64,000 nucleotides of DNA from Desulfomonilia bacterium (GCA_050014195.1 JBEKDT010000006.1:1-64000); one strand, 5' to 3'; positions 1 to 21,198 are shown, counted from the stretch's first letter. Notes: generated from the sequence alone by a model not told the origin. Numbers and translations: made by a program.

Positions 1-59
1 TGAAAGGTAATGTTTCTTCTAGCAAAGATATCAATAACTGCTGGTAAAAATAAATATTT

Positions 60-164
60 CGTTCCAGGATGTGGGATTAGCCACTATTAAATATCTCTTT
101 TGATAATCATCACAAGCCAACAGGCATAAGACTGCATATTACCATAAGTACATTTCACTCAAGA
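60..164 (-). repeat. Inverted, internally deleted copy (c0) of the ~170-bp dispersed repeat
   Basis: Reverse complement contains TCTTGAGT-GAAATGTAC (cf. TCTTGAGTTGAAACATAC in c3). 96-112 is the exact reverse complement of 310-326 (TGATGATTATCAAAAGA). It ends in TGGAACG at the same 38-nt distance after GATGATTATCAAAA as TGGCACG in c3. Confidence 0.7.
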
Positions 165-190
165 CAAAGCAGAGATAACTTCGATTTTCA

Positions 191-362
191 TATCGGTTTT
201 GAAATCCTCAGAAACCTAATAATCTGTGTTGAAACATACGAAGTAAGGCACTCCATATCAATGCATATCAAATGGTATGTAATCTCTGATTTTCCATGCC
301 CCTCTTTTCTGATGATTATCAAAAGAAATCTATGCTCTGGAGTAACCATTGGACTTGGCACG
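191..362 (+). repeat. Dispersed ~170-bp non-coding repeat, copy c1
   Basis: Aligns without gaps to 2251-2420 (129/170 identical by hand count) and to 7234-7403. Conserved blocks TCGGTTTT, GTTGAAACATACGAA, CAAATGGTATGTAATC, GATGATTAT, TGGCA. Confidence 0.92.
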
Positions 363-652
363 AAAGCTGTACTAACTCTATTCATAAAATATATTTCTTT
401 CTAAATCGCTATTGATACTCCTTAAAACAGAACTATTATAAACGACTCATGATGTCTTTCAACATTTGGGATTACTCCATCCGACGAATCTATTTCGCTT
501 TCTATGAAAAGCACTGTAAACACCAGACCAAAACAGTCATCGAAATGATTAGGCACCCTGGGGGAGGGACAAGCCGAAGATCCTCAAGATCATGCAATAA
601 TTATCATTGTTCATGCGGGGGATAAATACCTCAATATTTCGGAGGAAAACAG

Positions 653-2011
653 ATGAAAGTGCTTCTCATCCAACCCCCAAGTATTGACCCATTGTTAGAT
701 CAGGTTTTCCTTTTTGAGCCCTTGGCCCTTGAATACGTCGGGGCGGGTTTGAAGCAGGATGCCCACGATGTTCTGTTGCTTGATGCCCGACTTGACTCTG
801 ATTACGAGAGCGCATACCGCCGGTTTCAACCTGACGTGGTTGGACTGACCGGTTTTACCAGCCATGTCAATATCATCAAAACAATTGTTACTCGCCTAAA
901 GTCAATCTCTTCCGAAGTCCTGTTTGTTGTTGGTGGCCACCATGCCTCGGTGCAACCAATAGATTTTAATGATTCACTTATTGATATTGTAGTTATTGGC
1001 GAAGGAGTCGTCACTCTACGGGAAATCCTCCGCGCATTGGAAATGGGAAGCGGCTTCTCTGACATTCACGGAATCGCCATTCCCTGCGTGGACGGTATGA
1101 TATTCAGTAAACCAAGGCCTTACTCGGATCTTAACGAACTTCCATTTCCTGATCGCTCTCTAACTGCCAGCTACCGAAAACAGTACTTCAGCGAGTGGTT
1201 CAAGCCGCTAGCCTCTGTACGCACTTCACTTGGCTGCACGGCGCGTTGCAACTTCTGCGCCCTCTGGAAGATCACCCAGGGGAAATACCTGCGACGCGAT
1301 CCCGAAAAGGTTGTAGAGGAATTGCTTGCCGTGGCGGAACCCAACGTCTTCCTCTGCGACGACGATTCCATGTGCGATATAAAGCGGATGGACAAGATGG
1401 CCGACCTGATCGCCGCCGCAGGTATCCACAAGAAGTACTTCCTCTATGCCAGAGCGGACAACATAGTGAATCATCCCGAACTGTTCGCTAAGTGGGCCAG
1501 GATCGGTCTGGCTCAGGCTTTTGTGGGGATGGAGGATTTCTCGGAAAAACGGCTGATAGCCATGAAGAAGGGGATCACTACTGCGCAGCAGGCAGAAGCG
1601 GTCAAGATACTTGATAAGCTTGGGATCATGATGTACGCCTCATACATAGTTGATCCAGCCTATACCCGCGAAGACTTCAGCTCTTTACTGGCTTATGTCC
1701 GACAGATGAAACATAAGTACGTAATATTTACTGTCATGACGCCTCTTCCGGGCACAGAACTCAATGACATTCGAGGAAATGAGCTTCTTTCACTCAAGCC
1801 TGAATTGTATGACCTGGTGCATGCCCTACTACCCACCACGTTGCCGTTGCAGGAATTCTACAAGGAGTTTGCCAACCTGTATTCCAAGGCAGTACCGCTG
1901 TATAGGTACGTGCCGACGGTTTTTCGCTTTGGACTGCACGGCATTCTGCTTCGTATCACATTGTTCAATCGAGTTCTCAAAAAGTTCAAGCTGATGTATC
2001 TTGATTATTGA
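653..2011 (+). CDS. Cobalamin-binding (class B) radical SAM protein, resembling HpnR/BchE-type methylases
   Basis: 452 aa; N-terminal B12-binding domain (EPLALEYV, GGHHAS), CTARCNFC CxxxCxxC motif, TPLPGT; strong SD GGAGGA upstream. Confidence 0.9.
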   Translation: MKVLLIQPPSIDPLLDQVFLFEPLALEYVGAGLKQDAHDVLLLDARLDSDYESAYRRFQPDVVGLTGFTSHVNIIKTIVTRLKSISSEVLFVVGGHHASVQPIDFNDSLIDIVVIGEGVVTLREILRALEMGSGFSDIHGIAIPCVDGMIFSKPRPYSDLNELPFPDRSLTASYRKQYFSEWFKPLASVRTSLGCTARCNFCALWKITQGKYLRRDPEKVVEELLAVAEPNVFLCDDDSMCDIKRMDKMADLIAAAGIHKKYFLYARADNIVNHPELFAKWARIGLAQAFVGMEDFSEKRLIAMKKGITTAQQAEAVKILDKLGIMMYASYIVDPAYTREDFSSLLAYVRQMKHKYVIFTVMTPLPGTELNDIRGNELLSLKPELYDLVHALLPTTLPLQEFYKEFANLYSKAVPLYRYVPTVFRFGLHGILLRITLFNRVLKKFKLMYLDY

Positions 2012-2250
2012 CGGTGATAAATACGAAGTTAGGGGTCTGGGAATAAGTTGGAATAGGGTCTATCAGGCTTGCAATGCTTGAATTGATATCATTATTGTTC
2101 GGATTCGATGGAGGTATTATTCTCGCTCACAGACTCCTCCTCATTCAAAAAGAAAGAACTCTCTGGTTGCCAGGAAAACCTCAACAGATGGATGAGCTAC
2201 AATTTTAATGATAAAGCATTATGTTTATATTACAAGATCAAAGCTTTATA

Positions 2251-2422
2251 TATCGGTTTTGAAATCTCTTGAAACTGATGATCTTAGGTTGAAACATACG
2301 AAACTTATCGCTTCATATCAGTGCGTAACAAATGGTATGTAATCTATGGTTTTCCATGCTCCTCTTTATCGATGATTATGGAAAATAATCTATAGTCTAG
2401 AATAACAATTGGCCGTGGCATA
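2251..2422 (+). repeat. Dispersed ~170-bp non-coding repeat, copy c2
   Basis: Gap-free alignment to c1 and c3; shares GTTGAAACATACGAAACTTATCGCTTCATATC exactly with c3. Confidence 0.92.
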
Positions 2423-2564
2423 TTATCAACAGTTCATTAGTTTAAATTAATTTATTGAAAATGAAGTCATTTTTTGGGCCTAACAGCCTATTTTTAAGCC
2501 ACAAAAGCTGTTCCAAGAATGAGCCGGGATCAAAACCAGGCTTAACCCTTCACCATGTTTGGAG

Positions 2565-3056
2565 TCATGTGACATCCATGCTCATCAGGATACAATCAAT
2601 GATAGCGCGGGTACTCTTTTTTACGCATGCGTCCATGGGGCTGCCCAGACACGCGCACCGGATCTGGATGCCTACCAGGTGAACCTCGCACCCTGCATCT
2701 TCCTCTATGAGCTGAGCGACTACCTTGAGGGGAAACCGGTGTGTACTCATCGGTGCCTCATGTAAGCGTGAATGGGAAAATGTCCGCACTTCGCCAGGCA
2801 TGCCATTGAAATCAGCGGCATCGATGATGACAGTTTTAACAGGATGTGCCTCCAGGACATGGTAGAAGATGCTATCTGGACTATCTCCGGCATTAATGAT
2901 GATGATATTATCATGATCCGCAGGGAGATTTTCCGCTATGAAAACCCCCGCTCCGTCGTCTCCCCGCAGGGAATTACCCAATAGGACATATGCCGTCCTA
3001 CCTGCTTGGGCAGGAAGGAGTGCATTCATTACTTCTTCGGACAGCCCCAGATTCAT
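2565..3056 (-). CDS. [NiFe] hydrogenase maturation endopeptidase (HycI/HybD family)
   Basis: GNSLRGDDGAG, IIDAAD and STH motifs; start placed at ATG 3056, overlapping the large-subunit stop (ATGA). Confidence 0.9.
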   Translation of the reverse strand: MNLGLSEEVMNALLPAQAGRTAYVLLGNSLRGDDGAGVFIAENLPADHDNIIIINAGDSPDSIFYHVLEAHPVKTVIIDAADFNGMPGEVRTFSHSRLHEAPMSTHRFPLKVVAQLIEEDAGCEVHLVGIQIRCACLGSPMDACVKKSTRAIIDCILMSMDVT

Positions 3057-4390
3057 TGACCTTCGAATCTCACATCCAGGAAATGAGCCGAGCATGAAAT
3101 ACAGGGATCATAAGCCCTCACAAGCATTTCCAGGGCAAGGGTGATCTCCTGCTCCGTCTTGTCAAGGATGCCAGGAACCAGACTCTTCATGTCATGTTCA
3201 ATGTTGTTGATGTTCTGGGCAGTCGGGATGATGCAGTTGGCATTTTTTATAATTCCCTGATCGTCCGTCTCGTAGTTGTGATACAGAGTACCGCGGGGCG
3301 CCTCGACGGCTCCCACACCGTTTCCTGCCTTTACCGGCAGGTTGTGCTTTTCATTCAGGCCCACGAGCATCAGCTCCTCCTGCCTAATACCATGCTCCAT
3401 GAAGTATTCAATGATGCCTATGGAATGGTCGAGGCAGTGGACGCATTCAATGAGCTGGGCCACTGTATTGAGGTACGGATTGTGAACCGGCGGTTTGTAT
3501 GTGGCCGCATTTGCAACCATCTTGGCGCCTGCACAGAGCTTGTTAAAATTCAGGTTCGTCCTGGCCAGGGCGCCGACGGCATAAGATTCCCTGCTTAATC
3601 TCGCATACTTCGCTGAAGAGTGCTCGACGATGAACTCATTCGTTACCTTTTTATAATCCTTCTTGTGCACGCGTTTCCCGTCCGACGATCCGATGTCGCC
3701 TGTGAGCAGGGGGTAGCCGGGCCCGTCATTCACGAGCCCCACATATTCGGTCTCCCTCTCGAATTCGGGAAACTTAAGCTGAAGCGCCAGGTCCACCGTT
3801 GCGTCCATGTCGGGCTGCATGCCCATAAGGAGAGAGTGCATGGACTCGAGGTCTTTCGCATGGGGGAGCTTTGTGAAGCCGCCAGCAATGCACGAAATGG
3901 GGTGGATATGCCTGCCCACAAGTATGTCACACACATCATTACAGGTTTTCTTCATGCGTAGGGCCCTTCTTATAACCTTAGGGTGCGTGTCGATGAGCGG
4001 CACGAAACTCTTGACCCCCAGCAGGTCGGGCGCGGCAAGCAGGTATATGTGGAGGATATGGCTGTCCAGGATCTCCATGTCCAGCAGGAGCTCGCGCAGC
4101 CTGGTTGTCTGATCGGTCGGCTCGATGCCCAGGGCATCCTCCGCAGCCTGGACAGATGCCAGCGTATGGGCACAAGCGCAGATGCCACATATCCGGGAAG
4201 TGATGTGCTGAGCCTCGAATATGGATCTGCCCCTGAGCATGGCCTCGAAGAAACGGGGCGCTTCGACGATTTCCAGGTTGCATTTTTTGAGCACACCGTT
4301 TGTTACATCCACCACGATGTTCCCGTGTCCTTCCACTCTGGTCAGATATTCGACATTCACCGAGATGTTCTTATGATTCATCTTCTTCAT
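3053..4390 (-). CDS. Group 3b (sulfhydrogenase-type) [NiFe] hydrogenase large (alpha) subunit
   Basis: TRVEGHG, L1 RICGIC, EAPRG, L2 DPCISC-SAH followed by a short cleavable C-terminal tail. Confidence 0.95.
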   Translation of the reverse strand: MKKMNHKNISVNVEYLTRVEGHGNIVVDVTNGVLKKCNLEIVEAPRFFEAMLRGRSIFEAQHITSRICGICACAHTLASVQAAEDALGIEPTDQTTRLRELLLDMEILDSHILHIYLLAAPDLLGVKSFVPLIDTHPKVIRRALRMKKTCNDVCDILVGRHIHPISCIAGGFTKLPHAKDLESMHSLLMGMQPDMDATVDLALQLKFPEFERETEYVGLVNDGPGYPLLTGDIGSSDGKRVHKKDYKKVTNEFIVEHSSAKYARLSRESYAVGALARTNLNFNKLCAGAKMVANAATYKPPVHNPYLNTVAQLIECVHCLDHSIGIIEYFMEHGIRQEELMLVGLNEKHNLPVKAGNGVGAVEAPRGTLYHNYETDDQGIIKNANCIIPTAQNINNIEHDMKSLVPGILDKTEQEITLALEMLVRAYDPCISCSAHFLDVRFEGQ

Positions 4391-5126
4391 CCAGCTCTCT
4401 GCATTTATTATACATATCCATTTTCTTCATAACCAGGTCGAGGGATATATGGTACATTTCAATTACATCTTTCATGGCATTTTCAGCAGGATTGGTCACC
4501 ATGCCCCGGCATCCGTAACAGATATTACCGTGGTTGATACACCATGAATTGCACCCGGCCTTGGTAACCGGCCCCAGGCAGGTGATGCCCCGGTCGTACA
4601 TGCAGACATTCTCGTTGAGCTTGCATTCGACGCAGACGGCCTTGTCCGGTATGTGGTAGGGGATTCCCAAAAGGGCTGATTTCAGCACCTCGATAAACTC
4701 AGGCTGATAGACAGGACATCCGTTCACGAAGTAATCCACGTCCACAACCTGGTGGACGGCCCTGGTCTTTATCGTTGGGTAGAATGCATAGTCCTTGCCG
4801 TAGACATATCGCCTGATATCTTCCAGATCAAAGTTGTTCTTCATCCCGTTCACACCGCCTATGGTTGCACAGGATCCGTATGCCATGATGATTTTTGAGC
4901 GATCCCGGATCTTTTTAATGCGCTCCATTGCATGCTCTGTGGTGATGCTCCCTTCAATAATGGAGATATCGTAATTCTTGTCCCATTTTTCAGACATGAC
5001 CTCCCGGAATTCCACCAGATCAATGGATCCGATGATATCAAGCAGCCTCTCTCCGAAGTTTGCCACCTGCAATTGGCACCCTTCACAACAGGCAAAATCA
5101 AAAAAGGCCACTTTCGGTTTGATCAT
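4371..5126 (-). CDS. Group 3b [NiFe] hydrogenase small (delta) subunit
   Basis: CCEGC, GSCA, GCP, VCVECK, CLGPVT, CYGCRG Fe-S motifs. Confidence 0.93.
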   Translation of the reverse strand: MIKPKVAFFDFACCEGCQLQVANFGERLLDIIGSIDLVEFREVMSEKWDKNYDISIIEGSITTEHAMERIKKIRDRSKIIMAYGSCATIGGVNGMKNNFDLEDIRRYVYGKDYAFYPTIKTRAVHQVVDVDYFVNGCPVYQPEFIEVLKSALLGIPYHIPDKAVCVECKLNENVCMYDRGITCLGPVTKAGCNSWCINHGNICYGCRGMVTNPAENAMKDVIEMYHISLDLVMKKMDMYNKCRELDEEDES

Positions 5127-5969
5127 TCAGATTGCCCCCCGCAGGTTTTTTATTCTGCTGTAGCGGAAGACGGGTCCATCCTGGCAGCAGTAGATGTTAT
5201 GGATCTGGCAGTGGCCGCACTTTCCCAGGCCGCACTTCATGTGCCTTTCCAGGGAAACCAGGATCTGATCCTCTGGAACGCCTTTTGCGAGCAGTTCCCT
5301 GATCACGAATTTGTACATCACCGGCGGTCCGATGATTATGCCGAAAGTATAGTGGGGGTTGATCGTCACCTCTGGTATCAGCGTGGTTATAACACCCACA
5401 TGTCCCTTCCAGTCCGGGTCGGCCCTATCCACGGTGCATTGAAAGCTGACATCGATCCGCTTGCTCCACTCCTCAATCTCATCCCCAAATAGGATGCTCT
5501 GGGGTGTGTTGCAGCCCAGGAGGATGGAAACCTTTCCAAAGTCGCGCCGGTTGTCGATGACGTAGTTGATCAGGGACCGCAAAGGGGCTAGCCCGAGACC
5601 GCCCGCGATCATGAGGAGGTCATTCCCCTCCAGGATGCTTACCGGGAAACCTTTCCCATAGGGGCCGCGTATACCGATCTCGTCGCCCACTTCCATGTTG
5701 TGCATGACGGAAGTCAGCTTGCCTATCTTTCTGATGCACAGTTCAAAGCTCCCCCTGAGTGTGGGCGAAGAACATACAGAAATCGGTGCCTCCCCGGCAT
5801 TCAGGATGGACACCTCGACGAATTGCCCCGGCTCATGGTCGAGATACTCTCCGTTATTGAAGCGGATCTCGAACATCTGTTCCTTGTCTGTCAGGACCTT
5901 TTTCCGGATGATCTTTGCTGGCTTTATCTCGTATGCGGAGTCCCTGATTACTACTTTTTCCAGGCTCAT
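5127..5969 (-). CDS. Group 3b hydrogenase gamma subunit (FAD/NAD(P)-binding, [2Fe-2S])
   Basis: PGQF, RGPYG, AGGLGLAP, GPPVM, ERHMKCGLGKCGHC..CQDGP; start placed at ATG 5969, overlapping the beta-subunit stop. Confidence 0.92.
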   Translation of the reverse strand: MSLEKVVIRDSAYEIKPAKIIRKKVLTDKEQMFEIRFNNGEYLDHEPGQFVEVSILNAGEAPISVCSSPTLRGSFELCIRKIGKLTSVMHNMEVGDEIGIRGPYGKGFPVSILEGNDLLMIAGGLGLAPLRSLINYVIDNRRDFGKVSILLGCNTPQSILFGDEIEEWSKRIDVSFQCTVDRADPDWKGHVGVITTLIPEVTINPHYTFGIIIGPPVMYKFVIRELLAKGVPEDQILVSLERHMKCGLGKCGHCQIHNIYCCQDGPVFRYSRIKNLRGAI

Positions 5970-7000
5970 ATGCTCACCTTCTTCAAGGCGGTAATCGTTT
6001 CCTTCAGGTTGATCTTGGCCATGCAGGTTCTGCTGCATCTCCCGCACCCGGTGCAGTAGAACCGGTTGAATCGGTCGTTATGGTACTTGAATTTCCGGTA
6101 GAAGCGGTGGCGTAGCCTGTCACTCCGCTCGGCCCTGAAACTCTCGCCACTGGCGATCTTGGCAAAGGGTTCATTCTGACATGAGTCCCACACACGCACC
6201 CTCCTGCCCGTCTTCAGATCCAGATTCGGGATATCCATGACATCGAAGCAGTAACATGTGGGACACACATTCGTGCAATTGCCGCATGAGACACATCGGT
6301 CCCCTATCTCTTTCCACACACTGTGATCGAACCCCTTATCGAACAAAGCCGGGATTTCATCTCTTCCGACATCCACCTCAATTCTGAAAATGTTCCTTTT
6401 CTTTGTTCGTAGGTCTTCAAGGGCCTTGAGATGAGAGGGCCTTGCTTCCTTGATGAAGTTCATTCTTTCTATCAGATCATCACCGGTTTCGGTCTGGATA
6501 TGGATGAGATAGTCGTCCCCGATATCGGTGAAAAAGAGATCGTAACCGCCGAAGGGGAGATGATTGCCCATGAGCGCACAGCTTGCATAGCCGTCGCAGT
6601 AATCGTTGCATTCGAATCCCATGATAATCAGTTTGTTCTTCCTGAAGAGATAGTGGAGATCTTTGGGCCTGTCGGACAGCACGATGTTCAGGCACTGGAT
6701 CCCCGCCAGGTCGCAAGTATGGACCGCGAAGATGACCAGAGGCTCATATTCCACAACCACCTTTGTCTTCGGGGTTTCGTTGAGGTCGTACTCGATCAGC
6801 GTCTCATATTGGGGCATGAAGTACTTCTTGGGCGGCACAATGGTGGGTATGTACTGCATGGAGATCTGATCCGCAGACTGTACCTCTTCAAAGGCGTAAC
6901 CGTTGTATCCCTTGTGAACAGGAGCGACCACTTTCTGTTTCGCGGAGAGCTGTACGATGAAACTGTTCAGTTGCTCTTTTTCCAACACCACATAACTCAT
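5966..7000 (-). CDS. Group 3b hydrogenase beta subunit (2x[4Fe-4S], AsrA-like)
   Basis: CVSCGNCTNVCPTCYC and CTGCGRCSRTC motifs, WDSC. Confidence 0.92.
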   Translation of the reverse strand: MSYVVLEKEQLNSFIVQLSAKQKVVAPVHKGYNGYAFEEVQSADQISMQYIPTIVPPKKYFMPQYETLIEYDLNETPKTKVVVEYEPLVIFAVHTCDLAGIQCLNIVLSDRPKDLHYLFRKNKLIIMGFECNDYCDGYASCALMGNHLPFGGYDLFFTDIGDDYLIHIQTETGDDLIERMNFIKEARPSHLKALEDLRTKKRNIFRIEVDVGRDEIPALFDKGFDHSVWKEIGDRCVSCGNCTNVCPTCYCFDVMDIPNLDLKTGRRVRVWDSCQNEPFAKIASGESFRAERSDRLRHRFYRKFKYHNDRFNRFYCTGCGRCSRTCMAKINLKETITALKKVSI

Positions 7001-7233
7001 CGCTCATCCTTAATACTTGGGTGATTGATCATTTGTTTTCTGAATCACCCACAAACGCTATCATTCCCATAGATGTTATATGATTATAAGAGGCTGTAAC
7101 AAGCAGACAAGGGGGTTTATCAGTGTCGGAAAGAATTCTGGAATAAAAGGGCAGGTGTTGTAAGGGATGTTGGGATGGGGTCGGACCAAGATAAGTAAAT
7201 GTATTAATAAGAGTGTATGTTTCTTCAATAACG

Positions 7234-7405
7234 CCTCGGTTTTAAGATGCCTGAAAACCGAAAATCTTGAGTTGAAACATACGAAACTTATCGCTTCATA
7301 TCTGTGTGTAACAAATGGTATGTAATCATCACTTTACCTTGCCCCCCTTTTGCGATGATTATCAAAATAAATCTATACGCTGGAATAACCCTTGGCCTTG
7401 GCACG
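7234..7405 (+). repeat. Dispersed ~170-bp non-coding repeat, copy c3
   Basis: Gap-free alignment to c1/c2; perfect internal inverted repeats TCGGTTTT..AAAACCGA and TAATCATC..GATGATTA; ends TGGCACG. Confidence 0.92.
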
Positions 7406-7582
7406 CAATATTCAGTCGGGGTCAACCAGATATTACGTCAAGATATAGATGATGTAATTCGGGTCGATAAATTACTTATCGAATTCCTTGATTCGTGTTG
7501 CCAATAGGCTTTACATCACTTTCTCCAGAGTGGTTTCTTGATTAATAGACATCCCCGAAGCGATTATTCAGCTACTCAGGGT

Positions 7583-7861
7583 TTACTTACGGTTGAATTG
7601 TGTTTGCCTAATGGCTTTCTCAATGGCATCTTGCAGGGACATTGGAACTCCCGCCTCCGATTCCTCTACAAACACTATCCTTTTACCAACATTTGCCCTG
7701 ACCAATGCAAATAACTCTTCTGCTTCAGTACCCATTTTCTCTGAAATTGGGTACTGAGGAATTTTAGAAATATGATCTTCAGTGATAAGTTCCCCGAATT
7801 CCAAATCACAAAATGATACTAAATCAGGCACAACAAAACATTTGATTTTTTTATTATTCAC
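7583..7861 (-). CDS. Hypothetical 92-aa protein (AT-rich orphan)
   Basis: GTG start with purine-rich upstream sequence, plausible globular composition, no recognisable motif. Confidence 0.5.
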   Translation of the reverse strand: MNNKKIKCFVVPDLVSFCDLEFGELITEDHISKIPQYPISEKMGTEAEELFALVRANVGKRIVFVEESEAGVPMSLQDAIEKAIRQTQFNRK

Positions 7862-7948
7862 CTTATCTTCCTTACCCCATCCACTGCAAAATTCATACTG
7901 CTGGCCTGATATTCATGGGAATTTGGGGTCAATTTTAATACCGTTCTA

Positions 7949-8058
7949 TTCGATTTTATATCGGTTTTAAGATGTCTAGAAATAGAAGATCTATGGGTTG
8001 AAACCTATGCAGCAAGGCACTGTTATCAGTGCGTATCAAATGACATGGAATCATCGGT
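7949..8058 (+). repeat. Dispersed repeat, 3'-truncated copy c4
   Basis: TTCGATTTTATATCGGTTTTAAGATG..GTTGAAACCTATG..CAGTGCGTATCAAATG..AATCATCGGT matches the first ~100 nt of c1-c3 and the upstream flank of c1. Confidence 0.85.
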
Positions 8059-8219
8059 ATAGATAGACTATGAATCATATCTTCAACAAAAGTTCAGCAG
8101 TCAGTAATTGACATTACCATGAAACACCTTACAAAAATACTGCCCGATTCCGGGTGACAGGGGTGAAACAATAAGCATGCGGATAGGGATTTTGTTGGTT
8201 GCGTTCCACCCCACACGCC

Positions 8220-9482
8220 CTACGTGTTTTTCAGGATGGATGCCCGTGGTGTCTTTTCCGGGTTTTTGGGGATTATGAGGATAAACCGGCTCCCCTTTTT
8301 ACCATCGCTCTCCACATGGATGAATCCATGATGGGCATCGAGGGCTAGCTTGCAAAAAGTGAGTCCGAGCCCTGTTGAGTATCTTCTCCCATCCCTTTTC
8401 TTGGTGATCTGGAAGAACTTGTTGAAAATGGCCTCCTGAAACTCGGGCGCAATGCCGGGTCCGTTATCCTGTACATAAAAGGATATTCTATCACCTGTCT
8501 GCTCGAAGCCGGCCTCCACTTTCGAAGCCTGCGGAGCGTGCTGGACAGCGTTGACAAGCAGATTCTGCATGACCCTCAGCAGGATGCCCCGATCCCCCTG
8601 AAAGCTGCTCTCATTTGTACTCGAAGGAACATATTCCATGAGTTCGACCCCTCTGGTTTTAGCCATGCCGTTCAGGCGGATCACGGCCTCATGGATGAGA
8701 TCAGCAGGATTGATCCTTTCATACACGAGATTGAGACAACCCTCTTCAAGCCTGGTGATATCGAGGAGGTCGGAGATCATCCGGAACAGGGTGTCGCAGG
8801 CAGACTGGGCTGCCTGTACAAATTCGATGTTCTCGTCCAAAACCGTGTAAGAGAGGATATCAAGGTTCGCCACCATCTCGGAAAGAGGTCCTTTGAGGTC
8901 ATGAATAAGCATGTTGAAGAGCTCGGTGCGAATCCGCTCCAGATTCTTCAGCTCTACATTCTTGCGTTTGATGTCGTTTCTACTCTTCCTCAACGACTCA
9001 GTAAGGCGCTGATTCTCTATGGCACTTATAACCTGTCCGGCAATGGTCAGAAGGAGATCGCGATCGTCAGCGCTAAATTCATCAATATCTTTCTTATCGG
9101 TGATAGTCAGCACACCGATCACCTTATCATTGCTGAATATGGGCGCAATGAGGAAGGCCTCTTTCTTATAGTGTTCATATCGCTTCTTAAACAACTGGCC
9201 TTCCGTACCCGGACCGATATACAAGACACTCTTGTTCTTGACCACCCATGCGGATGGCGTATCCTCTTCAACCGGCTGCTTGATCCCAATAAGTTTGGGT
9301 CTCGTCGATGCAGCGACCTCTAAGGTCTTCTTCCCGCGGAGGATCATGATGGATCCGCACTCGGCATCCATGCAAGCCACAACCTGCAAGAGGATACGCT
9401 GCAGCTTATTCTGGAATGAAAGGGATCTGTTCTGTGAGATCTCCATTATGGCCACTAAGGTATCGAGGGCATTTGAAATCAT
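8220..9482 (-). CDS. GAF-domain sensor histidine kinase
   Basis: GAF-like N-terminus, H-box HDLKGPL, N-box NLLVNA, G1 DNGPG, G2 GLGL. Confidence 0.92.
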   Translation of the reverse strand: MISNALDTLVAIMEISQNRSLSFQNKLQRILLQVVACMDAECGSIMILRGKKTLEVAASTRPKLIGIKQPVEEDTPSAWVVKNKSVLYIGPGTEGQLFKKRYEHYKKEAFLIAPIFSNDKVIGVLTITDKKDIDEFSADDRDLLLTIAGQVISAIENQRLTESLRKSRNDIKRKNVELKNLERIRTELFNMLIHDLKGPLSEMVANLDILSYTVLDENIEFVQAAQSACDTLFRMISDLLDITRLEEGCLNLVYERINPADLIHEAVIRLNGMAKTRGVELMEYVPSSTNESSFQGDRGILLRVMQNLLVNAVQHAPQASKVEAGFEQTGDRISFYVQDNGPGIAPEFQEAIFNKFFQITKKRDGRRYSTGLGLTFCKLALDAHHGFIHVESDGKKGSRFILIIPKNPEKTPRASILKNT

Positions 9483-9495
9483 TTTGATCTCCAGA

Positions 9496-10653
9496 TTAAA
9501 GATATTGTTTAAGAAGTGTTTGAGCTTCTTGGTTGCCCGGCTCTATTTTATCCACCTTCAGGAGAACAAGGTTGGCCCTCGCATTCTGATTGAGGGTGAT
9601 ATATATCTTGGCGATTTTCAACAGGAGACGCACGTCCTTAGTCTCTTTCTTTTCTATTTCCATCAGGTACGGCATGGCTTCTTTTGATTCTCCTGTGCAC
9701 ACGTAGACATCCACCAGCTTGGACATGATGTCATATCGATTGGGTATCTGCTGGAGGATGAAGGTATAGAGTTTGATGGCATAATTGTATTCCCTCCTTT
9801 CTATGCAGATCGCCGCGATATCTTCTCGGAGCGAGAGTGGATCTTCTGCGAGGTCGAGGATCTTATTGAATACCTTGATCGCCTTGGCCGGCATGCCTTT
9901 TTTCAGAAGGATCGCCCCGAGGTTCATCCCCCGCTCCAGATGACGCGGGCTGATATTCATGGCACGTTCATACCAATGGGTCGCCTTCTCGACGTCATCC
10001 TGTTGGAGGTATAGGTCTCCCAGATGGTGGAAGGCGAATACATCCATTTTGTTCATTTTGGCGGCCTTGAGAAGCCAATTTTCCGCTTGGGCCATATCGC
10101 CTTTTTTAAAGTAGAGGTGCCCCAGCTCTCTGACAGGCCTTGAAGATGACGGGTTGGCATCCATTGCAAGGAGGCCCTCGTTGATGGCCCTCTCTATATC
10201 TCCCTTTTCTTCGAGATCACGCGCCCTTTTCAGGTGATAAAGAATGGGAGGCGGATTGTTCGCCTTCTCGATGACCATTTTCACACGCTCATCGAGAGAC
10301 TTCACGGTAATTGGCTTGAGGATGTAGGCATCGATATCCGACTCGGCCGCCTCGGCCACGATCTCCCTGTTCGCCTCAGCCGTGACCATCACCACAGGCA
10401 GATCGCGAAGCCTCCTGTCGTCCCGTATCCGCGCCAGAAGTTCTACCCCGGTCATTCCCGGCATGTTCCAGTCTATGATGGCGAGATCGACTTTCACGTC
10501 CTCTTTCTGTAGAATTTTCCATGCTTCAAGCCCGTTATATGCGTAAAAAAACTGACCACTGATATTCAAGACTTTGAGCATGCTCCTGATCGCCTTGCAC
10601 ATGTTTTCCATGTCATCGACGATAAGGGTATTCATATTTTGCATGTCTATCAT
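9496..10653 (-). CDS. CheY-like response regulator with TPR repeats
   Basis: IVDD, DWNMPGM, MVTAEA, KP; C-terminal TPR-like helical repeats. Confidence 0.88.
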   Translation of the reverse strand: MIDMQNMNTLIVDDMENMCKAIRSMLKVLNISGQFFYAYNGLEAWKILQKEDVKVDLAIIDWNMPGMTGVELLARIRDDRRLRDLPVVMVTAEANREIVAEAAESDIDAYILKPITVKSLDERVKMVIEKANNPPPILYHLKRARDLEEKGDIERAINEGLLAMDANPSSSRPVRELGHLYFKKGDMAQAENWLLKAAKMNKMDVFAFHHLGDLYLQQDDVEKATHWYERAMNISPRHLERGMNLGAILLKKGMPAKAIKVFNKILDLAEDPLSLREDIAAICIERREYNYAIKLYTFILQQIPNRYDIMSKLVDVYVCTGESKEAMPYLMEIEKKETKDVRLLLKIAKIYITLNQNARANLVLLKVDKIEPGNQEAQTLLKQYL

Positions 10654-13818: not shown

Positions 13819-14172
13819 GATCCGAAGATAATATGAAGAAAGCTCATGTGCCTTCTTGGCAGACTTTCTCTACAGGCTCCAGCTTTTGAATCCAGCCCCA
13901 AAAGTCTTCCAACGAACTACATACATTGGAATAGAGCCAAGTAAGTTTATCTATAATAATGCTCAATTTACCATTTGCAATAGGCTGCAATGAGATAATT
14001 ATTACATTGGTACTAATTGCATAAATCAATAGAACTTTCCCCCAGCGAAAGCGAGGAAGGGCAGAAGTCGGAGCACCTTAGTAGATGTCACTGCCTTATT
14101 CATCTCACCCAGAGATTCCTTCAATAAATTGCCAGAACCAATGTCAGAATATCAACTATAGATTATGTAATA

Positions 14173-14263
14173 TAATCAACGATTTTCTAATACCGATGAT
14201 TATTGCACTTAATCATCGGTCCCACAAGTCCTGAGAAACTGATGATTTTGTGCCATAACAAAC
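14173..14263. promoter_or_regulatory. Array of four alternating TAATCATCGGT-like half-sites, related to the 170-bp repeat
   Basis: TAATCAACGAT (14173), ACCGATGATTA (14192), TAATCATCGGT (14210), ACTGATGATTT (14238); 14192-14220 is a perfect 11-7-11 palindrome. Function inferred only. Confidence 0.6.
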
Positions 14264-14486
14264 GTTTTGCTAATATTGAAGGTTTCCTCGGAAGATCTTT
14301 CCTTTCGGAGGAAAATTCCAGAATATAGATTTCTATGATGTATGACATCTTTAACTCGACACTATCCATTCCCCACTCAAAACTGTATTTATTTTGTCTG
14401 TTGGCGTTCTCCGATGTATAATACAGAGTATGGGAAAAGACGGAAGAATCTTGAAGAGGAAGGGCGTAAAAAAAAGGGAAGATTTT

Positions 14487-16523
14487 TTGAACCTGTACCG
14501 GCACGGGTTCGTCCGTATTGCCGCATGTATTCCCGAGGTGAGAGTTGCGGACCCCGGCTTTAACGCGCTCAGGACGATAGATCTCATCCGGAAGGCCTTT
14601 GAGCAGAACTGTGTGGTGGCCGTGTTTCCTGAGATGGGCCTGTCGGGTTATACCAATGATGACCTGTTCTTTCAGGATGCATTACAGAAGGCGGTCCTGG
14701 ATGCCCTGGAGGAGGTCAGGAAGGTAACCACGGAACTCGACATGATCGTGGTTGCCGGGGCGCCCCTGAAGGTGATGGATGCCCTGTTCAACTGTGCAAT
14801 CGTCATGCATGCAGGCGATATCCTGGGTATCGCGGTAAAGAGCTATCTGCCGAACTACCGTGAGTTCTACGAACTGCGCCAATTCAGACCCGCCAAGGAC
14901 CTGGGCGTTGATACGATCGATCTCTGCGGGCAAAAAGGCATACCCATCGGCGCCGACGTGATCTTCGAAGCGGACGGCATTCCTGGCCTGAGGTTGTTTG
15001 CGGAGATCTGCGAGGATCTCTGGACACCCATTCCGCCTTCCAGCCATGCAGCCCTGGCAGGGGCAACCATCATCATCAACCTCTCTGCATCCAACATAAC
15101 AACGGGTAAGGATGAATACCGCCGCGACCTCGCCTCCAACCAGTCGGCACGGTGTATTGCCGCTTATCTCTACACCGCCGCCGGCCCCGGAGAATCCACC
15201 ACGGACCTTGCCTGGGACGGCCATGCAGTCATCTATGAAAACGGCACGCTCCTGGCAGAATCTAAACGGTTTTCATGGGACCCCCAGATCATCATGGCCG
15301 ATATCGACCTCGATCGTCTGGTGAAGGATCGTATGATCATGACGAGCTTCATAGAGGACAGGACCGGCCAGGATGGCAGGAAGCCCTTCAGAAAGGTCAG
15401 GTTCCCCATGGCAATGCCATTGGGAAAGATCATGCCTATACGGGAGATCTCCCGGTTTCCCTATGTCCCCATCGATCCTTCGGTGAGGGGAAAGCGATGT
15501 TATGAAATCTATAATATCCAGGTCCAAGGCCTGGCTAAAAGGATGAAGTCATCAGGCATCGAGAACCTTATCATCGGCGTCTCGGGCGGGCTTGACTCCA
15601 CCCATGCGTTGATCGTATGCGCCCGGACCATGGATACATTAAGGCTCCCCCGCAGGAATATCAAGGCCTACACCATGCCCGGATTTGCCACCTCCGAGAA
15701 GACCTATGCCAATGCCAAGGCCCTTATGAAGGCATTGGGGGTGGAGGCATCCAAAATTGATATCCGCCCAAGCTGCATGCAGATGATGAAGGATATCGGT
15801 CATGCATACGGAAAGGGCCGTGCGCTCTATGATGTGACCTTTGAGAACGTCCAGGCCGGCCAGCGGACCTCCATCCTCTTCCGCCTCGCCAATATGCGCC
15901 ATGGCCTGGTGGTGGGCACCGGCGACCTGAGCGAGCTTGCCCTAGGCTGGTGCACCTATGGCGTAGGCGACCACATGTCGCACTACAGCGTGAATGCAAG
16001 CGTGCCCAAGACGCTCATTCAATATATCATCCGCTGGGTGGCATCGGAGAAGGTCTTCGGCGAAAAGGTCTCCATCTACCTTGAAGATATCCTTCAGACC
16101 GAGATCAGCCCCGAACTCATCCCCGGAACAGTGAACGGCCAGCCCGCCCAGAGCACAGAGGCGGTCATCGGGCCTTACGAGCTGCAGGACTTCAATACAT
16201 TCTACATGACTCGGTATGGTTATCTGCCATCCAAGGTTGCCTTTCTTGCATACTGTGCCTGGCACGATATTACGAGGGGTGCCTGGCCGGACATTGCGCC
16301 TGCGAAGAGGCACCAATACACATTATCCCAGATCAAGCACTGGCTTGAGGTCTTTATCCGCCGCTTCTTCAAGTATAGCCAGTACAAGCGCTCGTGCATC
16401 CCGAATGCCCCCAAGGTGGGCTCAGGAGGCTCCCTGTCCCCGAGGGGCGACTACCGTGCCCCCAGCGACAGCGAGGAGATCCCCTGGATGCAGGACTTGA
16501 AAACCATTCCGGATGAAACCTGA
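14487..16523 (+). CDS. nadE: Glutamine-dependent NAD+ synthetase
   Basis: Nitrilase-like domain ([22 protein letters not shown]) plus synthetase domain ([22 protein letters not shown]). Start uncertain (ORF open from 14394; TTG 14487 chosen). Confidence 0.95.
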
Positions 16524-16538
16524 ACAACAGGAGGCCCC

Positions 16539-17339
16539 ATGGTCAAGAAGGGAAAAATGGACAATACCCAACCTGTGGACAACATACTCAAGCAGGCCGA
16601 TGCCCTGAAGGCCTATTTTGAGGAAAAGGGCGATGAGCCTTTCGAGCAGCTTGTGGTCTTTCTGGATACCCTGAAACAGGCCATTGTGTCTTTGACGAAT
16701 GCAGACCTGGCCCGTGCAGCCGAGCACATGAGGCGTCTCAAGACTATCACCTCCGATGAACTCTTCCGGGGCATCGGCGAGATCACGAGGGACCTGCACG
16801 AGTCCATCAACGATATCCAGAGGTTTCTTGAGCCTATCCTGACGAACCTCACCGAGGAAGATATCCAGGGCCTCTCCAGCAAACTCACCCACGTAGCGAC
16901 CCTGGTGAAGGACACCTCCGAAAAGACGCTGGATCTGTTGTTTACCAGACAGGAAAAGGCTGTGGCCGACAATGCCGTCTATGATGCCATTGCCAGGCAC
17001 GTCATGGCAGACGACAAGAAGGAGGCCTTAAAAAAGCTCAAGCTCATGAAAGATCACAACAAGGAACTCATCAATGAGCTTATGAGGATCAGTGAGCTCC
17101 AAATCCATGCGGACCTGGTGGACCAGATCGTCAAGAAGGTATTCAGGGTTGTGGAGAACATGGAGATCAGGCTCGTAGACCTCATCAGGAGATATACCCG
17201 CAGCACAAATATATCCCGAGGCAAGAAGGATCGGCGTGACGGGACAAAGACCCACGGCCCCGCTATCCCTGGTCGGGATAAGGGTGTGGCCTCCTCACAG
17301 GATGATGTGGACAGCCTTTTAAAGTCGTTCGGCTTGTGA
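16539..17339 (+). CDS. cheZ: CheZ-family chemotaxis phosphatase
   Basis: DxxxQ catalytic motif (DLVDQ), GEITRDLH, C-terminal SQDDVDSLLKSFGL CheY-binding helix. Confidence 0.78.
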   Translation: MVKKGKMDNTQPVDNILKQADALKAYFEEKGDEPFEQLVVFLDTLKQAIVSLTNADLARAAEHMRRLKTITSDELFRGIGEITRDLHESINDIQRFLEPILTNLTEEDIQGLSSKLTHVATLVKDTSEKTLDLLFTRQEKAVADNAVYDAIARHVMADDKKEALKKLKLMKDHNKELINELMRISELQIHADLVDQIVKKVFRVVENMEIRLVDLIRRYTRSTNISRGKKDRRDGTKTHGPAIPGRDKGVASSQDDVDSLLKSFGL

Positions 17340-19232: not shown

Positions 19233-20171
19233 ATGTACAGGGAAATCCCCGTCTCCCTGGTCAGTGTGGACAAGGAATATGATTTTGATATCTTTCTGAA
19301 GATCCATGATAAGCAGCGCCTCTTCGCAGCCAAAGGGGCACGGCTCACCAATGATCACGTAGGCATGCTGAGATCCAGAGATACGCATATCTTTGTGTTG
19401 GAACAAGATTGGGATACTGCTCGAAAGCAGCTGTATCAGAGACGGTCTCATGTCATCATCGCTCCCGAATCCGACACCAGAAAAAAGGCCGATCGTATCT
19501 ATAATTCTGCCATGCAATCCATCAAGGATGCATACCGCGGGCTTGTTCCACGCACTATTTCCGAAGTAGAGAAGAATGCCGATGAACTGGTAAAGCTCAT
19601 CCTTTCTGATGATAAAGTGATCGAGGGCCTTAAGCTCATCGAAACAACCGACCATTTTACCTATCAACACTCGGTACGGGTTGGTATCTATGCAACGGCA
19701 CTTCTCTTGAAACTCATGGGCGACAAGCTCACCCGCAATCAGATCAAAAAACTCAGTACCGGGTATTTCCTCCATGATATCGGCATGACACGAATCCCCA
19801 TGCAGATCATCGAAAAACCTGAACAGTTAAGCGAGTTCGAATGGAAGCTCATCCGGATGCACCCTATCTGGGGCCATGAGAGTATTAGAAAGACCGAATT
19901 CCTGAGCATCGAGGCCACGAACATCATCCTGACGCACCATGAGCGCCATGATGGGAGCGGGTATCCCAACAAGAGCAAAGGAGAGGAAATTCCCACCTAT
20001 GCCCGGATGTGCGCCATAGCCGATGCCTTTGAATCGCTGACCGCTCAGCGACCCTACCGTAAGGCATATGAGCCTTTTGAAGCCTTAAGGATCATGTTCC
20101 AGGAGATGTCTCGGGAATTTGACCCCGAGCTCTTTATGACCTTTGTAAAGCTTCTGGGGCCGGAGGCGTAA
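19233..20171 (+). CDS. HD-GYP domain phosphodiesterase, paralog 1
   Basis: HSVRV, LHDIG, HHERHDGSGYP, IADAFESLT..RPY. Confidence 0.92.
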   Translation: MYREIPVSLVSVDKEYDFDIFLKIHDKQRLFAAKGARLTNDHVGMLRSRDTHIFVLEQDWDTARKQLYQRRSHVIIAPESDTRKKADRIYNSAMQSIKDAYRGLVPRTISEVEKNADELVKLILSDDKVIEGLKLIETTDHFTYQHSVRVGIYATALLLKLMGDKLTRNQIKKLSTGYFLHDIGMTRIPMQIIEKPEQLSEFEWKLIRMHPIWGHESIRKTEFLSIEATNIILTHHERHDGSGYPNKSKGEEIPTYARMCAIADAFESLTAQRPYRKAYEPFEALRIMFQEMSREFDPELFMTFVKLLGPEA

Positions 20172-20172
20172 G

Positions 20173-20204
20173 GAGTGATCAGTGACCAGTAGTCACTGAT
20201 CACT
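20173..20204. repeat. Heptamer-based (AGTGATC/AGTGACC) hairpin after HD-GYP 1
   Basis: AGTGATCAGTGAC-CAGTA-GTCACTGATCACT, 13-bp perfect stem. Confidence 0.8.
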
Positions 20205-20235
20205 GACTCAGTATTTCTTCAAGATATCAATAGAG

Positions 20236-21198
20236 TTGACGATCAGTAACGATATGGAGAGTTTCAGGGAAATCCCTTTATCCATGGTTCATGTAGGCCA
20301 TGTATATGACTTTGATATTTACCTGAAGTTGCAGGATACTAAGCGCCTTTTTGCCGCGAAAGGCGTTCCCCTTACCAGGGTGCACCTCATCATGACGAGC
20401 CACAGTGAAACACAACTTTATGTGCGAGAGGAAGAGTGGGCTACTGCAAGGAATGAATTTGAGCATGACATAAGATATGTGTTTACCGACCCAAGACTTG
20501 ATTCAAGGCAAAAGGCCGATCTTATATATACCTTGGCCATGCAGTCCATCAGGGATGCGTACAATGGCCTTATTCCAAGGGCCATCGTTGATGTTCAAAA
20601 GGATGCCGATGAGCAGGTGAAACACATCCTCTCCGACGAAGAGGTGCTTGGACACCTTAGGCTCATGAGTACATCGGGCGGCTCAATCTACCAGCATTCG
20701 CTCCGCGTGGGGATCTATGCCACAACACTCCTCCTCAAGCTTATGGGGGAGAGACTCACCAGTGACCAGATCAGAAGGATCAGCATGGGGTTCTTCTTGC
20801 ACGACATCGGGATGGCAAGGGTGCCCATACAGATCCTCACAAAGCCGGGCCGCCTCGATGATTTTGAGATGCGGCTGATCCGGATGCATCCCATATGGGG
20901 TCAAAAGAGGATGATCACTACAGGATCATTGAGCCTGGAGGCAGTCAACATTATCCTTGCCCACCACGAACACCTTGACGGCAGCGGTTATCCACATAAT
21001 AGATCACAAGACGGCATCCCTCTGTATGCCAGGATCTGCACTATCGCGGATGCCTTTGAGGCCCTGACCGCAGAACGCCCCTACCGCAAAGCTCTTGCGC
21101 CCTTTTCCGCCCTGCAGGTCATGTATCAGGACTTATCCCATGGATTCGATCCCGAGCTCTTTATGGCCTTTGTAAAGCTTCTGGGGCCGGATGCATAA
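20236..21198 (+). CDS. HD-GYP domain phosphodiesterase, paralog 2
   Basis: HSLRV, LHDIG, HHEHLDGSGYP; colinear with paralog 1. Start may be ATG 20254. Confidence 0.92.
   Translation: MTISNDMESFREIPLSMVHVGHVYDFDIYLKLQDTKRLFAAKGVPLTRVHLIMTSHSETQLYVREEEWATARNEFEHDIRYVFTDPRLDSRQKADLIYTLAMQSIRDAYNGLIPRAIVDVQKDADEQVKHILSDEEVLGHLRLMSTSGGSIYQHSLRVGIYATTLLLKLMGERLTSDQIRRISMGFFLHDIGMARVPIQILTKPGRLDDFEMRLIRMHPIWGQKRMITTGSLSLEAVNIILAHHEHLDGSGYPHNRSQDGIPLYARICTIADAFEALTAERPYRKALAPFSALQVMYQDLSHGFDPELFMAFVKLLGPDA

Follow-up and report, generated by a model that had tools for sequence, protein, structure and literature searches.

What is the sequence of about 170 nucleotides (nt) that recurs between unrelated genes near the start of a contig from a Desulfomonilia bacterium? 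The stretch analyzed here, GCA_050014195.1 JBEKDT010000006.1:1-64000 (64 kb; hereafter the window), had previously been read from its letters alone, and this sequence-only reading proposed, in the first 8 kb, an unannotated non-coding repeat family that punctuates accessory gene modules. Four explanations were offered for it: a recombination or cassette-boundary site, a non-autonomous mobile element, a portable promoter, or a structured non-coding RNA (ncRNA). We found that the family of ~170-nt non-coding repeats is real, and that related arrays are present in two other genomes. The family is undescribed; a narrow literature search returned no description of it, which is not proof that none is in print. 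Most likely the copies are sites of DNA recombination or of a mobile element, and not an RNA or a promoter. The explanation that we tentatively favor, as possible rather than probable, is that they are recombination sites, bound by a protein and repeated in direct orientation, which mark the limits of gene modules that have accreted.

A repeat search gave one family of three copies in the window, at 193-360, 2253-2420, and 7236-7403, each 168 nt long, ungapped, and 76-80% identical to the reference copy. The full copies, here named c1 (core 191-362, E 9.9e-47), c2 (2251-2422, E 3.6e-49), and c3 (7234-7405, E 7.7e-50), lie on the plus strand and have pairwise identities of 129, 128, and 134 over 172 columns, so the three ungapped full copies of the sequence-only reading were borne out. 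With a left extension of about 19 nt, common to c4 and several copies of a related array (L005, below), c1 occupies 174-362. A profile made from c1-c3 recovered 7960-8058 as the 5' part of the element (model 2-100, E 2.9e-15; nhmmer, window), confirming the 3'-truncated copy that had been placed at 7959-8058. Together with its left extension, this copy, c4, spans 7938-8059 on the plus strand (nhmmer E 2.9e-15 and 2.8e-22). It is the final copy, at the right edge of the window cluster, and its central block is degenerate. The profile had no further significant match in the other 56 kb of the window, and the probability that four uniformly placed copies span 7.87 kb or less of 64 kb is about 0.007. 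Just to the right of c2 (about 2423-2440) lies a TCAACAG motif similar to the right-flank sequence of L005 copies.

The inverted, internally deleted copy that had been claimed at 60-164 (c0; minus strand, a degenerate 3' part) shrank to a short match. The supported inverted match is 93-115 only, to the conserved GATGATTATCAAAAG block (blastn 93-115 against 329-307, 91% over 23 nt). As a copy, c0 has a profile E of 0.25-0.7, and the remainder of 60-164 is similarity at the level of the eye. The motif GATGATTAT is present on the minus strand at 103-111, within c0.

Coding is not conserved, as had been noticed from the sequence. Stops or frameshifts interrupt several of 12 copies in all three plus-strand frames, by which a coding function was rejected, and no codon periodicity was seen: column entropies in the 3' half are 0.49, 0.53, and 0.58 bits, and the variable columns of c1-c3 are distributed 19/21/19 by codon position.

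The search for further copies in other genomes, which had been suggested with the sequence-only reading, led to the related arrays. A genome contig collection, without the window's own genome, was scanned with a pattern from the two most conserved blocks, and nine loci were returned. Seven of them (L001-L004 and L007-L009) are chance pattern matches, with a profile E of 0.29 or worse or no hit. Three of these seven, the Solobacterium contigs L001, L003, and L009, gave the same weak profile match (model 37-96, E 0.3-0.9), which is probably an unrelated conserved sequence of that genus. The other two, L005 (CAWKAM010000017.1) and L006 (CAWAUM010000013.1), are contigs of metagenome-assembled genomes (MAGs) of uncultured delta-proteobacteria, and 10 kb on either side of one match was analyzed in each. 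At E <1e-3, an iterated profile identified 8 pieces in L005 and 3 in L006, where it also gave one weak piece (E 0.17). The 11 pieces are clustered and intergenic, and 10 of them are on one strand. The collection scan returned one locus per MAG, suggesting that each assembly probably has few copies outside its cluster, although this is an estimate and not a count; the pattern fits just 2 of the 6 intact copies outside the window. By tblastx and blastn, the window, L005, and L006 regions have nothing in common but the repeats, and there is no synteny. blastn of 7210-7420 gave no plasmid or phage match, and a plasmid or phage origin of the repeat was rejected on this basis.

The three genomes hold 15 significant pieces (E <1e-3), 14 of them on one strand, and the combined P for co-orientation per source is about 0.002. 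All pieces are intergenic, and the flanking genes are unrelated to one another and, in L005 and L006, to the window genes. Within the arrays, a copy occupies 4 of 4 intergenic gaps in the window, 4 of 4 in L006 (one by the weak piece of E 0.17), and 8 of 10 in L005. The orientation of the repeat is absolute and independent of the direction of the neighboring genes: its 3' end lies 16-180 nt beyond the stop codons of minus-strand genes, yet it is also this end that is turned towards the start codons of plus-strand genes (radical SAM, PAS, and AMP-binding). Part-copies are found at the edges of the arrays. At the right end of the window and L005 arrays is a 5' part stopping at model 99-100, at the left end of the L006 array is a 3' part beginning at model 78, and these edge part-copies overlap in model 78-100.

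An RNA element or a promoter would track genes, whereas a DNA site with the polarity of the array or the chromosome would not. This bears on the idea that the repeat is a portable promoter or terminator cassette duplicated with transcription units, which would explain why one copy is found in almost every gap between the transcription units of the arrays. We consider this cassette highly improbable, because the element faces genes with either end and no sigma-70-like promoter or terminator is common to the copies. Promoter-like sites in the copies numbered 14 against a shuffle expectation of 13.6, and terminator-like sites 3 against 6.8 expected. The best promoter-like sites are outside the copies, at 412-439 (radical SAM gene) and 7110-7083 (hydrogenase operon). 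A sigma-54 promoter at the 3' TGGCAC end was also rejected, because, compared by eye with the sigma-54 consensus, no conserved -12 element follows.

Four parts make up the element: a 5' stem-loop, a conserved GGTTGAAAC.TA.G block, a variable inner stretch, and the most conserved block, CAAATGGTATGTAATC, which is followed by a conserved unstructured 3' half. Column entropy is 0.53 bits per column in the 3' half and 0.74 in the 5' half, the 3' half being the better conserved. A 16-nt block that is identical in c1-c3 varies in other copies. In the central block, all three L006 copies have GCATG, and the non-terminal window and L005 copies that keep the block have GTATG; L5_6194, with a degenerate central block, is the exception. 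Beyond the core, c1, c4, and four L005 copies remain homologous for about 20-25 nt on the left side, and the two full L005 copies for about 65 nt on the right side. Spacing constraints had been argued from a fixed length; the length is indeed fixed in c1-c3, but the relatives have 4-5-nt deletions at one spot, which makes that argument weaker than stated. An internal tandem duplication of a 94-nt unit was tried and rejected, since local alignment of half against half was no better than shuffles in 6 of 6 copies.

The 5' half invites a further explanation, that the repeat is a small RNA or cis-acting RNA family made from the plus strand, with the 5' stem-loop, a variable hairpin, and a C-rich CCCCUCUUUUU stretch able to pair with ribosome-binding sites. 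In the 5' half of 9 sequences, the sole surviving consensus stem is stem 1, of 8 bp (TCGGTTTT-N10-AAAACCGA), in which two pairs show compensatory change. Seven of 10 copies retain stem 1; a double compensatory change was seen once, and G-T intermediates are tolerated on the plus strand only. The inner hairpin often remains a hairpin when its sequence changes (GCACTG/CAGTGC in c4, CGTACTG/CAGTACG in L5_9966). These observations speak for RNA, and several others against it. The stems pointed out in the sequence-only reading are present where it placed them, but the ACATAC/GTATGT stem is invariant in four copies and broken in the rest, uncompensated and without covariation. The 3' half, which is the best conserved, has no consensus structure (-0.83 kcal/mol and 0 compensatory pairs in 11 sequences). 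Minimum free energies of the 7 full copies were not below those of shuffles, the mean z being about -0.9 on the plus strand and -0.7 on the minus strand, with single copies ranging from +0.9 to -2.6. The Rfam comparison that had been proposed was carried out, and no family matched: at E up to 1 there was nothing in window 1-9000, and in L005 and L006 there were two chance hits only, far below gathering scores. A known RNA was rejected by this result for the three sequences. With no consistent promoter or terminator, and with an orientation that ignores the direction of neighboring genes, we judge an RNA family to be very unlikely. Conservation is at the level of sequence and spacing, not of folding.

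The copies are mosaics, in that the nearest relative of a copy shifts by segment and across genomes. The first 16 nt of c1 and c2 are identical; c2 and c3 agree at 55 of 57 positions in the centre (model 38-94) and at 79 of 115 elsewhere; c1 and c3 are nearest in the 3' part (78 of 94). The variable inner stretch has at least four types, each common across genomes rather than within one, and the divergence of copies within a genome equals that between genomes.

A CGWTGATYW-like motif recurs along the element, in direct orientation at about -20, +25, and +119 and inverted at about 89, 167, and 213. GATGATTAT has 7 occurrences in the window against 0.93 expected, an enrichment that is partly circular because the motif was derived from these same sequences. 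One of the occurrences is included in a perfect 11-bp inverted repeat, ACCGATGATTA-N7-TAATCATCGGT, at 14192-14220, outside the array. It lies in an AT-rich gap (14150-14260) upstream of an NAD synthase gene, where the short motifs of the repeat cluster; with a profile E of 0.28 or worse, this gap holds no significant copy. Motifs at fixed direct and inverted positions, their enrichment, and the occurrence inside a perfect inverted repeat all speak for an architectural or regulatory DNA platform, where a nucleoid-associated protein or a transcription factor binds the CGWTGATYW-like motifs and organizes or silences the region, with no mobility. Sequence-level conservation with fixed spacing and without RNA structure agrees with such a platform, as does the position of the copies upstream of promoter-like sites and not on them. 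The homology over the whole 170 nt, however, far exceeds the needs of a binding site, the neighboring genes have no common function, and the enrichment carries the circularity described above. Since the co-orientation, the mosaicism, the 5' and 3' part-copies, and the targeting by an insertion sequence (IS) would also be left unexplained, we regard a platform of this kind as rather improbable.

The IS in question is an IS1182-family element of 1810 bp at L005:10953-12762 (NCBIfam 316 bits, cut-off 270), with the inverted repeats GAGACCGTTGAAAAAGC and GAGTCTGTTGAAAAAGC. It splits one L005 copy between ..AAATGGTA and GTATGTAATC.., with GTA as the target duplication. A second IS end, at L005 1-78, is identical to it at 78 of 78 positions and abuts a different repeat copy at the same base; the two copies that were hit are only about 81% alike. 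These are two independent IS insertions at one point of the most conserved central block. IS1272/TnSha1, of the same family, is reported to insert into the stems of hairpins or inverted repeats (PMC4923244; PMC5678879). The repeated hit and this hairpin-stem targeting of the family suggest that the central inverted repeat is recognized as such in the cell.

The IS also bears on the main rival of the recombination-site explanation, according to which the repeat is a decayed non-autonomous element like a miniature inverted-repeat transposable element (MITE) that was inserted between genes, spread locally, and diverged with patches of gene conversion, the half copies being truncations. The repeat is small, AT-rich, non-coding, multi-copy, and strictly intergenic, and it occurs in indel variants and as fragments. 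In one L005 copy, 16-nt terminal inverted repeats (9944-9959 / 10169-10184, 88% complementary) bound a 241-nt unit, the two full L005 copies have the ~65 nt of extra right flank in common, and a short ACCGTTGA string is common to the repeat and the IS1182-family inverted repeat. Despite these features, we consider a MITE-like origin somewhat unlikely. There is no terminal inverted pair around c1-c3, and the left flank compared with an inner motif (model 88-99) beat shuffles in 2 of 7 copies only, by which a short-form element bounded by these inverted repeats was rejected. No target duplication was seen by eye at the homology boundaries in 10 left and 12 right flanks. With up to 3 mismatches, the 17-nt IS inverted repeat was present at the three IS ends in L005 alone and at none of the repeat flanks, and the IS interior had no match to the repeat profile, so the repeat was rejected as a MITE of the L005 IS. 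In addition, 14 of the 15 pieces are on one strand and the copies are tightly clustered without dispersal, and there has been no recent burst, because copies within a genome are as diverged as those between genomes.

Among the four explanations first offered, the structured ncRNA and the portable promoter are thus disfavored, and the recombination or cassette-boundary site and the non-autonomous mobile element stand, neither being proven. These two DNA-level explanations gain support from the related arrays in two other genomes and from the IS that targets the element.

The modules between the copies are unrelated, as had been noticed, and Pfam confirmed this for the window. Module 1, between c1 and c2, is a B12-binding radical SAM gene on the plus strand (653-2011; Pfam B12-binding and Radical_SAM), and its best NCBIfam match was HpnR-like, below the cut-off. 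Module 2, flanked by c2 and c3 as direct repeats, is a five-gene operon of an NAD(P)-linked [NiFe] hydrogenase on the minus strand (2565-7000; Pfam), with a HycI protease, a large subunit, a small subunit, an FAD/NAD subunit, and a 4Fe-4S beta subunit; its NCBIfam matches were sulfhydrogenase-like, below the cut-offs. Module 3, flanked by c3 and c4, is a conserved hypothetical gene of 92 aa on the minus strand (7583-7861) with atypical composition. This open reading frame (ORF) had no Pfam or NCBIfam match; the same cluster is found on 24 contigs, and a 95-aa homologue is 67% identical. With a GC content of 0.376 and a third-position GC content (GC3) of 0.33, against 0.647 for the window, it is the most deviant of the module genes.

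In L005, the copies separate two amidohydrolases, a PAS protein, two KAS III-like genes, an AMP-binding enzyme, a polyketide cyclase-like protein, HU, and DedA. In L006, they separate a GNAT protein, a 1400-aa PAS histidine kinase, a YafQ/RelB toxin-antitoxin pair, and a 710-aa repeat protein. The genes for the YafQ-type toxin and the RelB-type antitoxin (L006:9260-9787, minus strand) form a 0.8-kb module that is exactly bounded by two repeat copies. Modules in the arrays range from single small genes and this 0.8-kb pair to the 4.4-kb operon. Inside the L005 array, a small ORF on the plus strand (5808-6047) with a weak ribbon-helix-helix match (E 4e-4) adjoins a 127-aa ORF of no known family on the minus strand (5077-5460), and the two may be another small toxin-antitoxin-like module.

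If the repeats are recombination sites, each would form, over about 170-240 bp, a composite platform on which a site-specific recombinase or a transposase-type protein, encoded beyond the stretches in view, acts in trans. The conserved arms with CGWTGATYW-like motifs would bind the protein, and the central block CAAATGGTATGTAATC, together with the inverted repeats on either side of it, would be where crossover takes place or hairpins readily form. Gene modules would be joined head to tail at the repeat sites, as are integron cassettes or elements accreted in tandem at att sites, with one site per module boundary and all sites of an array co-oriented. What we observed is the family itself, its clustering, an orientation independent of gene direction, conservation of sequence rather than structure, mosaicism, and the IS insertions; that a protein binds the repeats, that strands are exchanged at the centre, and that the modules are mobile is what we infer. 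Recombination sites would account for the punctuation of modules, the co-orientation, the clustering, the conservation of sequence with kept spacing, and the mosaicism of the repeats, and also for the near-identical centres of c2 and c3 around the hydrogenase operon and for the overlapping part-copies at array edges.

Several observations weigh against recombination sites. The homology boundaries are ragged, not sharp, the clustering of breakpoints in the centre is marginal (P 0.04-0.06), arm variants do not co-occur with particular modules across genomes, and the rightmost L006 piece (model 122-166) is off the half-site pattern. No module recurs in another of the three arrays by blastn or tblastx, and neither an empty site nor an excised circle was seen. 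The modules had been called accessory, which their composition does not support: GC3 is 0.57-0.69 in the radical SAM gene and four of the five hydrogenase-operon genes, compared with 0.647 +/- 0.051 in 33 other window genes, so both modules look compositionally native; the GC3 of hycI is lower, at 0.52. Of 64 window ORFs of at least 90 aa that were scanned (10 + 54), none matched a transposase or integrase family, in agreement with the earlier statement that the window has neither. L006, whose array lies wholly within the 20-kb locus with only small unannotated gaps, contains no recombinase, and the sole transposase, in L005, belongs to the IS that interrupts a copy. The chromosomal context differs from array to array, so that no attachment gene shared by them is seen. 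Neither an integrase nor a conserved target is at the array ends in view; the left ends of the window and L005 arrays are beyond the sequence analyzed. There is no tRNA or tmRNA in the window, L005, or L006, and a tRNA-linked island was rejected for this reason.

At about 14000-17000 of the window, the genes change from mostly minus strand on the left to mostly plus strand on the right, and the cumulative GC-skew has its minimum there. The window has more DnaA-box-like 9-mers than expected (27 against 13.65 +/- 4.14), and none is in 13.8-14.4 kb. No replication origin can be claimed near 14 kb, because these 9-mers are not clustered at that point, and this candidate was rejected. Farther right, two tandem paralogous HD-domain genes on the plus strand (19233-21198) were recognized as a 300-nt direct repeat of 69% identity.

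A more far-reaching proposal would be that the arrays represent an integron-like but mechanistically distinct system of gene accretion in uncultured delta-proteobacteria. In such a system, sequence-conserved sites of ~170-240 bp unrelated to attC would, with a putative trans-acting recombinase, capture modules from small genes and toxin-antitoxin pairs to operons such as that of the NAD(P)-linked [NiFe] hydrogenase, order them head to tail, and exchange them between genomes. We put this forward as an unlikely speculation. If the repeats are recombination sites, there would be a second route besides integrons to ordered arrays of exchangeable modules, open also to metabolic modules the size of an operon and found in an anaerobic lineage about which little is known. 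The repeat profile and the central block would then provide a sequence handle for finding arrays and the recombinase in metagenomes. Should the repeat instead be a mobile element in decay or a platform for protein binding, it would simply add to the known kinds of lineage-specific intergenic repeat, and the main lasting point would be a clean natural double hit of an IS1182-family element on the same inverted-repeat target.

How the family relates to known systems can be seen by comparing it first with dispersed repeats. BIME/REP and ERIC sequences are dispersed genome-wide in tens to hundreds of copies and in both orientations, and a palindromic unit is dominant in them. Like them, the present repeat is non-coding and intergenic, often lies just past gene ends, is a mosaic of short motifs, and is the target of an IS, as theirs are of some IS. 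Unlike them, it is low-copy, bound to arrays, co-oriented, and mostly non-palindromic. With MITEs it has in common its small size, its AT-richness, its non-coding nature, and the 16-nt terminal inverted repeats of one L005 copy. Inverted repeats are not family-wide, however, and target duplications and a partner IS with matching ends were not found around copies that are co-oriented and clustered. Palindrome-associated elements derived from IS200/IS605 have subterminal hairpins at both ends, whereas this repeat has a conserved hairpin at its 5' end only and no consensus structure in the 3' half.

A second comparison is with tandem accretion. Cis-mobilizable elements (CIMEs) are elements that lost their integrase, and integrative elements accrete in tandem at att sites (PMC5704250). 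The present arrays resemble those left by such accretion, after decay of the recombination genes, in three respects: direct repeats flank every module and the modules have no recombination genes, full composite sites are inside the array with partial sites at its ends, and c2 and c3 have a near-identical centre (55/57) with diverged arms, although the 16-nt block that c1-c3 share varies in other copies. Unlike accreted att arrays, the present arrays have no integrase, tRNA, or conserved target gene at their ends, and many short modules stand in a row.

The third comparison is with integrons. attC sites have consensus boxes at their ends (R'' / R' = RYYYAAC ... GTTRRRY) and are typically shorter than 170 nt, and IS and introns that target them exist. 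The repeat core is 170 nt, and regular expressions built on this consensus found R''/R' box pairs in 0 of 8 copies with flanks, on both strands and with 40-200 nt between the boxes. One strand of an attC site folds end to end into an imperfect hairpin with R and L boxes, an unpaired central spacer, and a variable terminal structure (PMC4889954). The repeat has no such end-to-end imperfect palindrome but only local stems, and its sequence is conserved, not its fold. The identity with attC was rejected by the absent boxes and hairpin. We agree with the sequence-only reading that the repeat is not attC, CRISPR, or a known RNA family. Unlike integron cassettes, the repeat-bounded modules leave room for promoters of their own, their genes point in either direction, and one of them comprises an operon of five genes. 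Clusters of attC sites without an integron integrase (CALIN) have been described, with a 4-kb rule for the clustering of attC sites (PMC4889954), which the 5-kb spacing of c2 and c3 exceeds. Like attC sites, the repeats are chimeric or mosaic and have an IS aimed at them. Like CALIN, same-strand repeated sites punctuate unrelated and often small modules, including a toxin-antitoxin pair, and, as in most CALIN, no integrase is near: four same-strand copies lie in 8 kb, with no integrase family among the 64 ORFs scanned. On this comparison, the arrangement of the repeats most resembles that of integrase-less arrays of integron cassettes.

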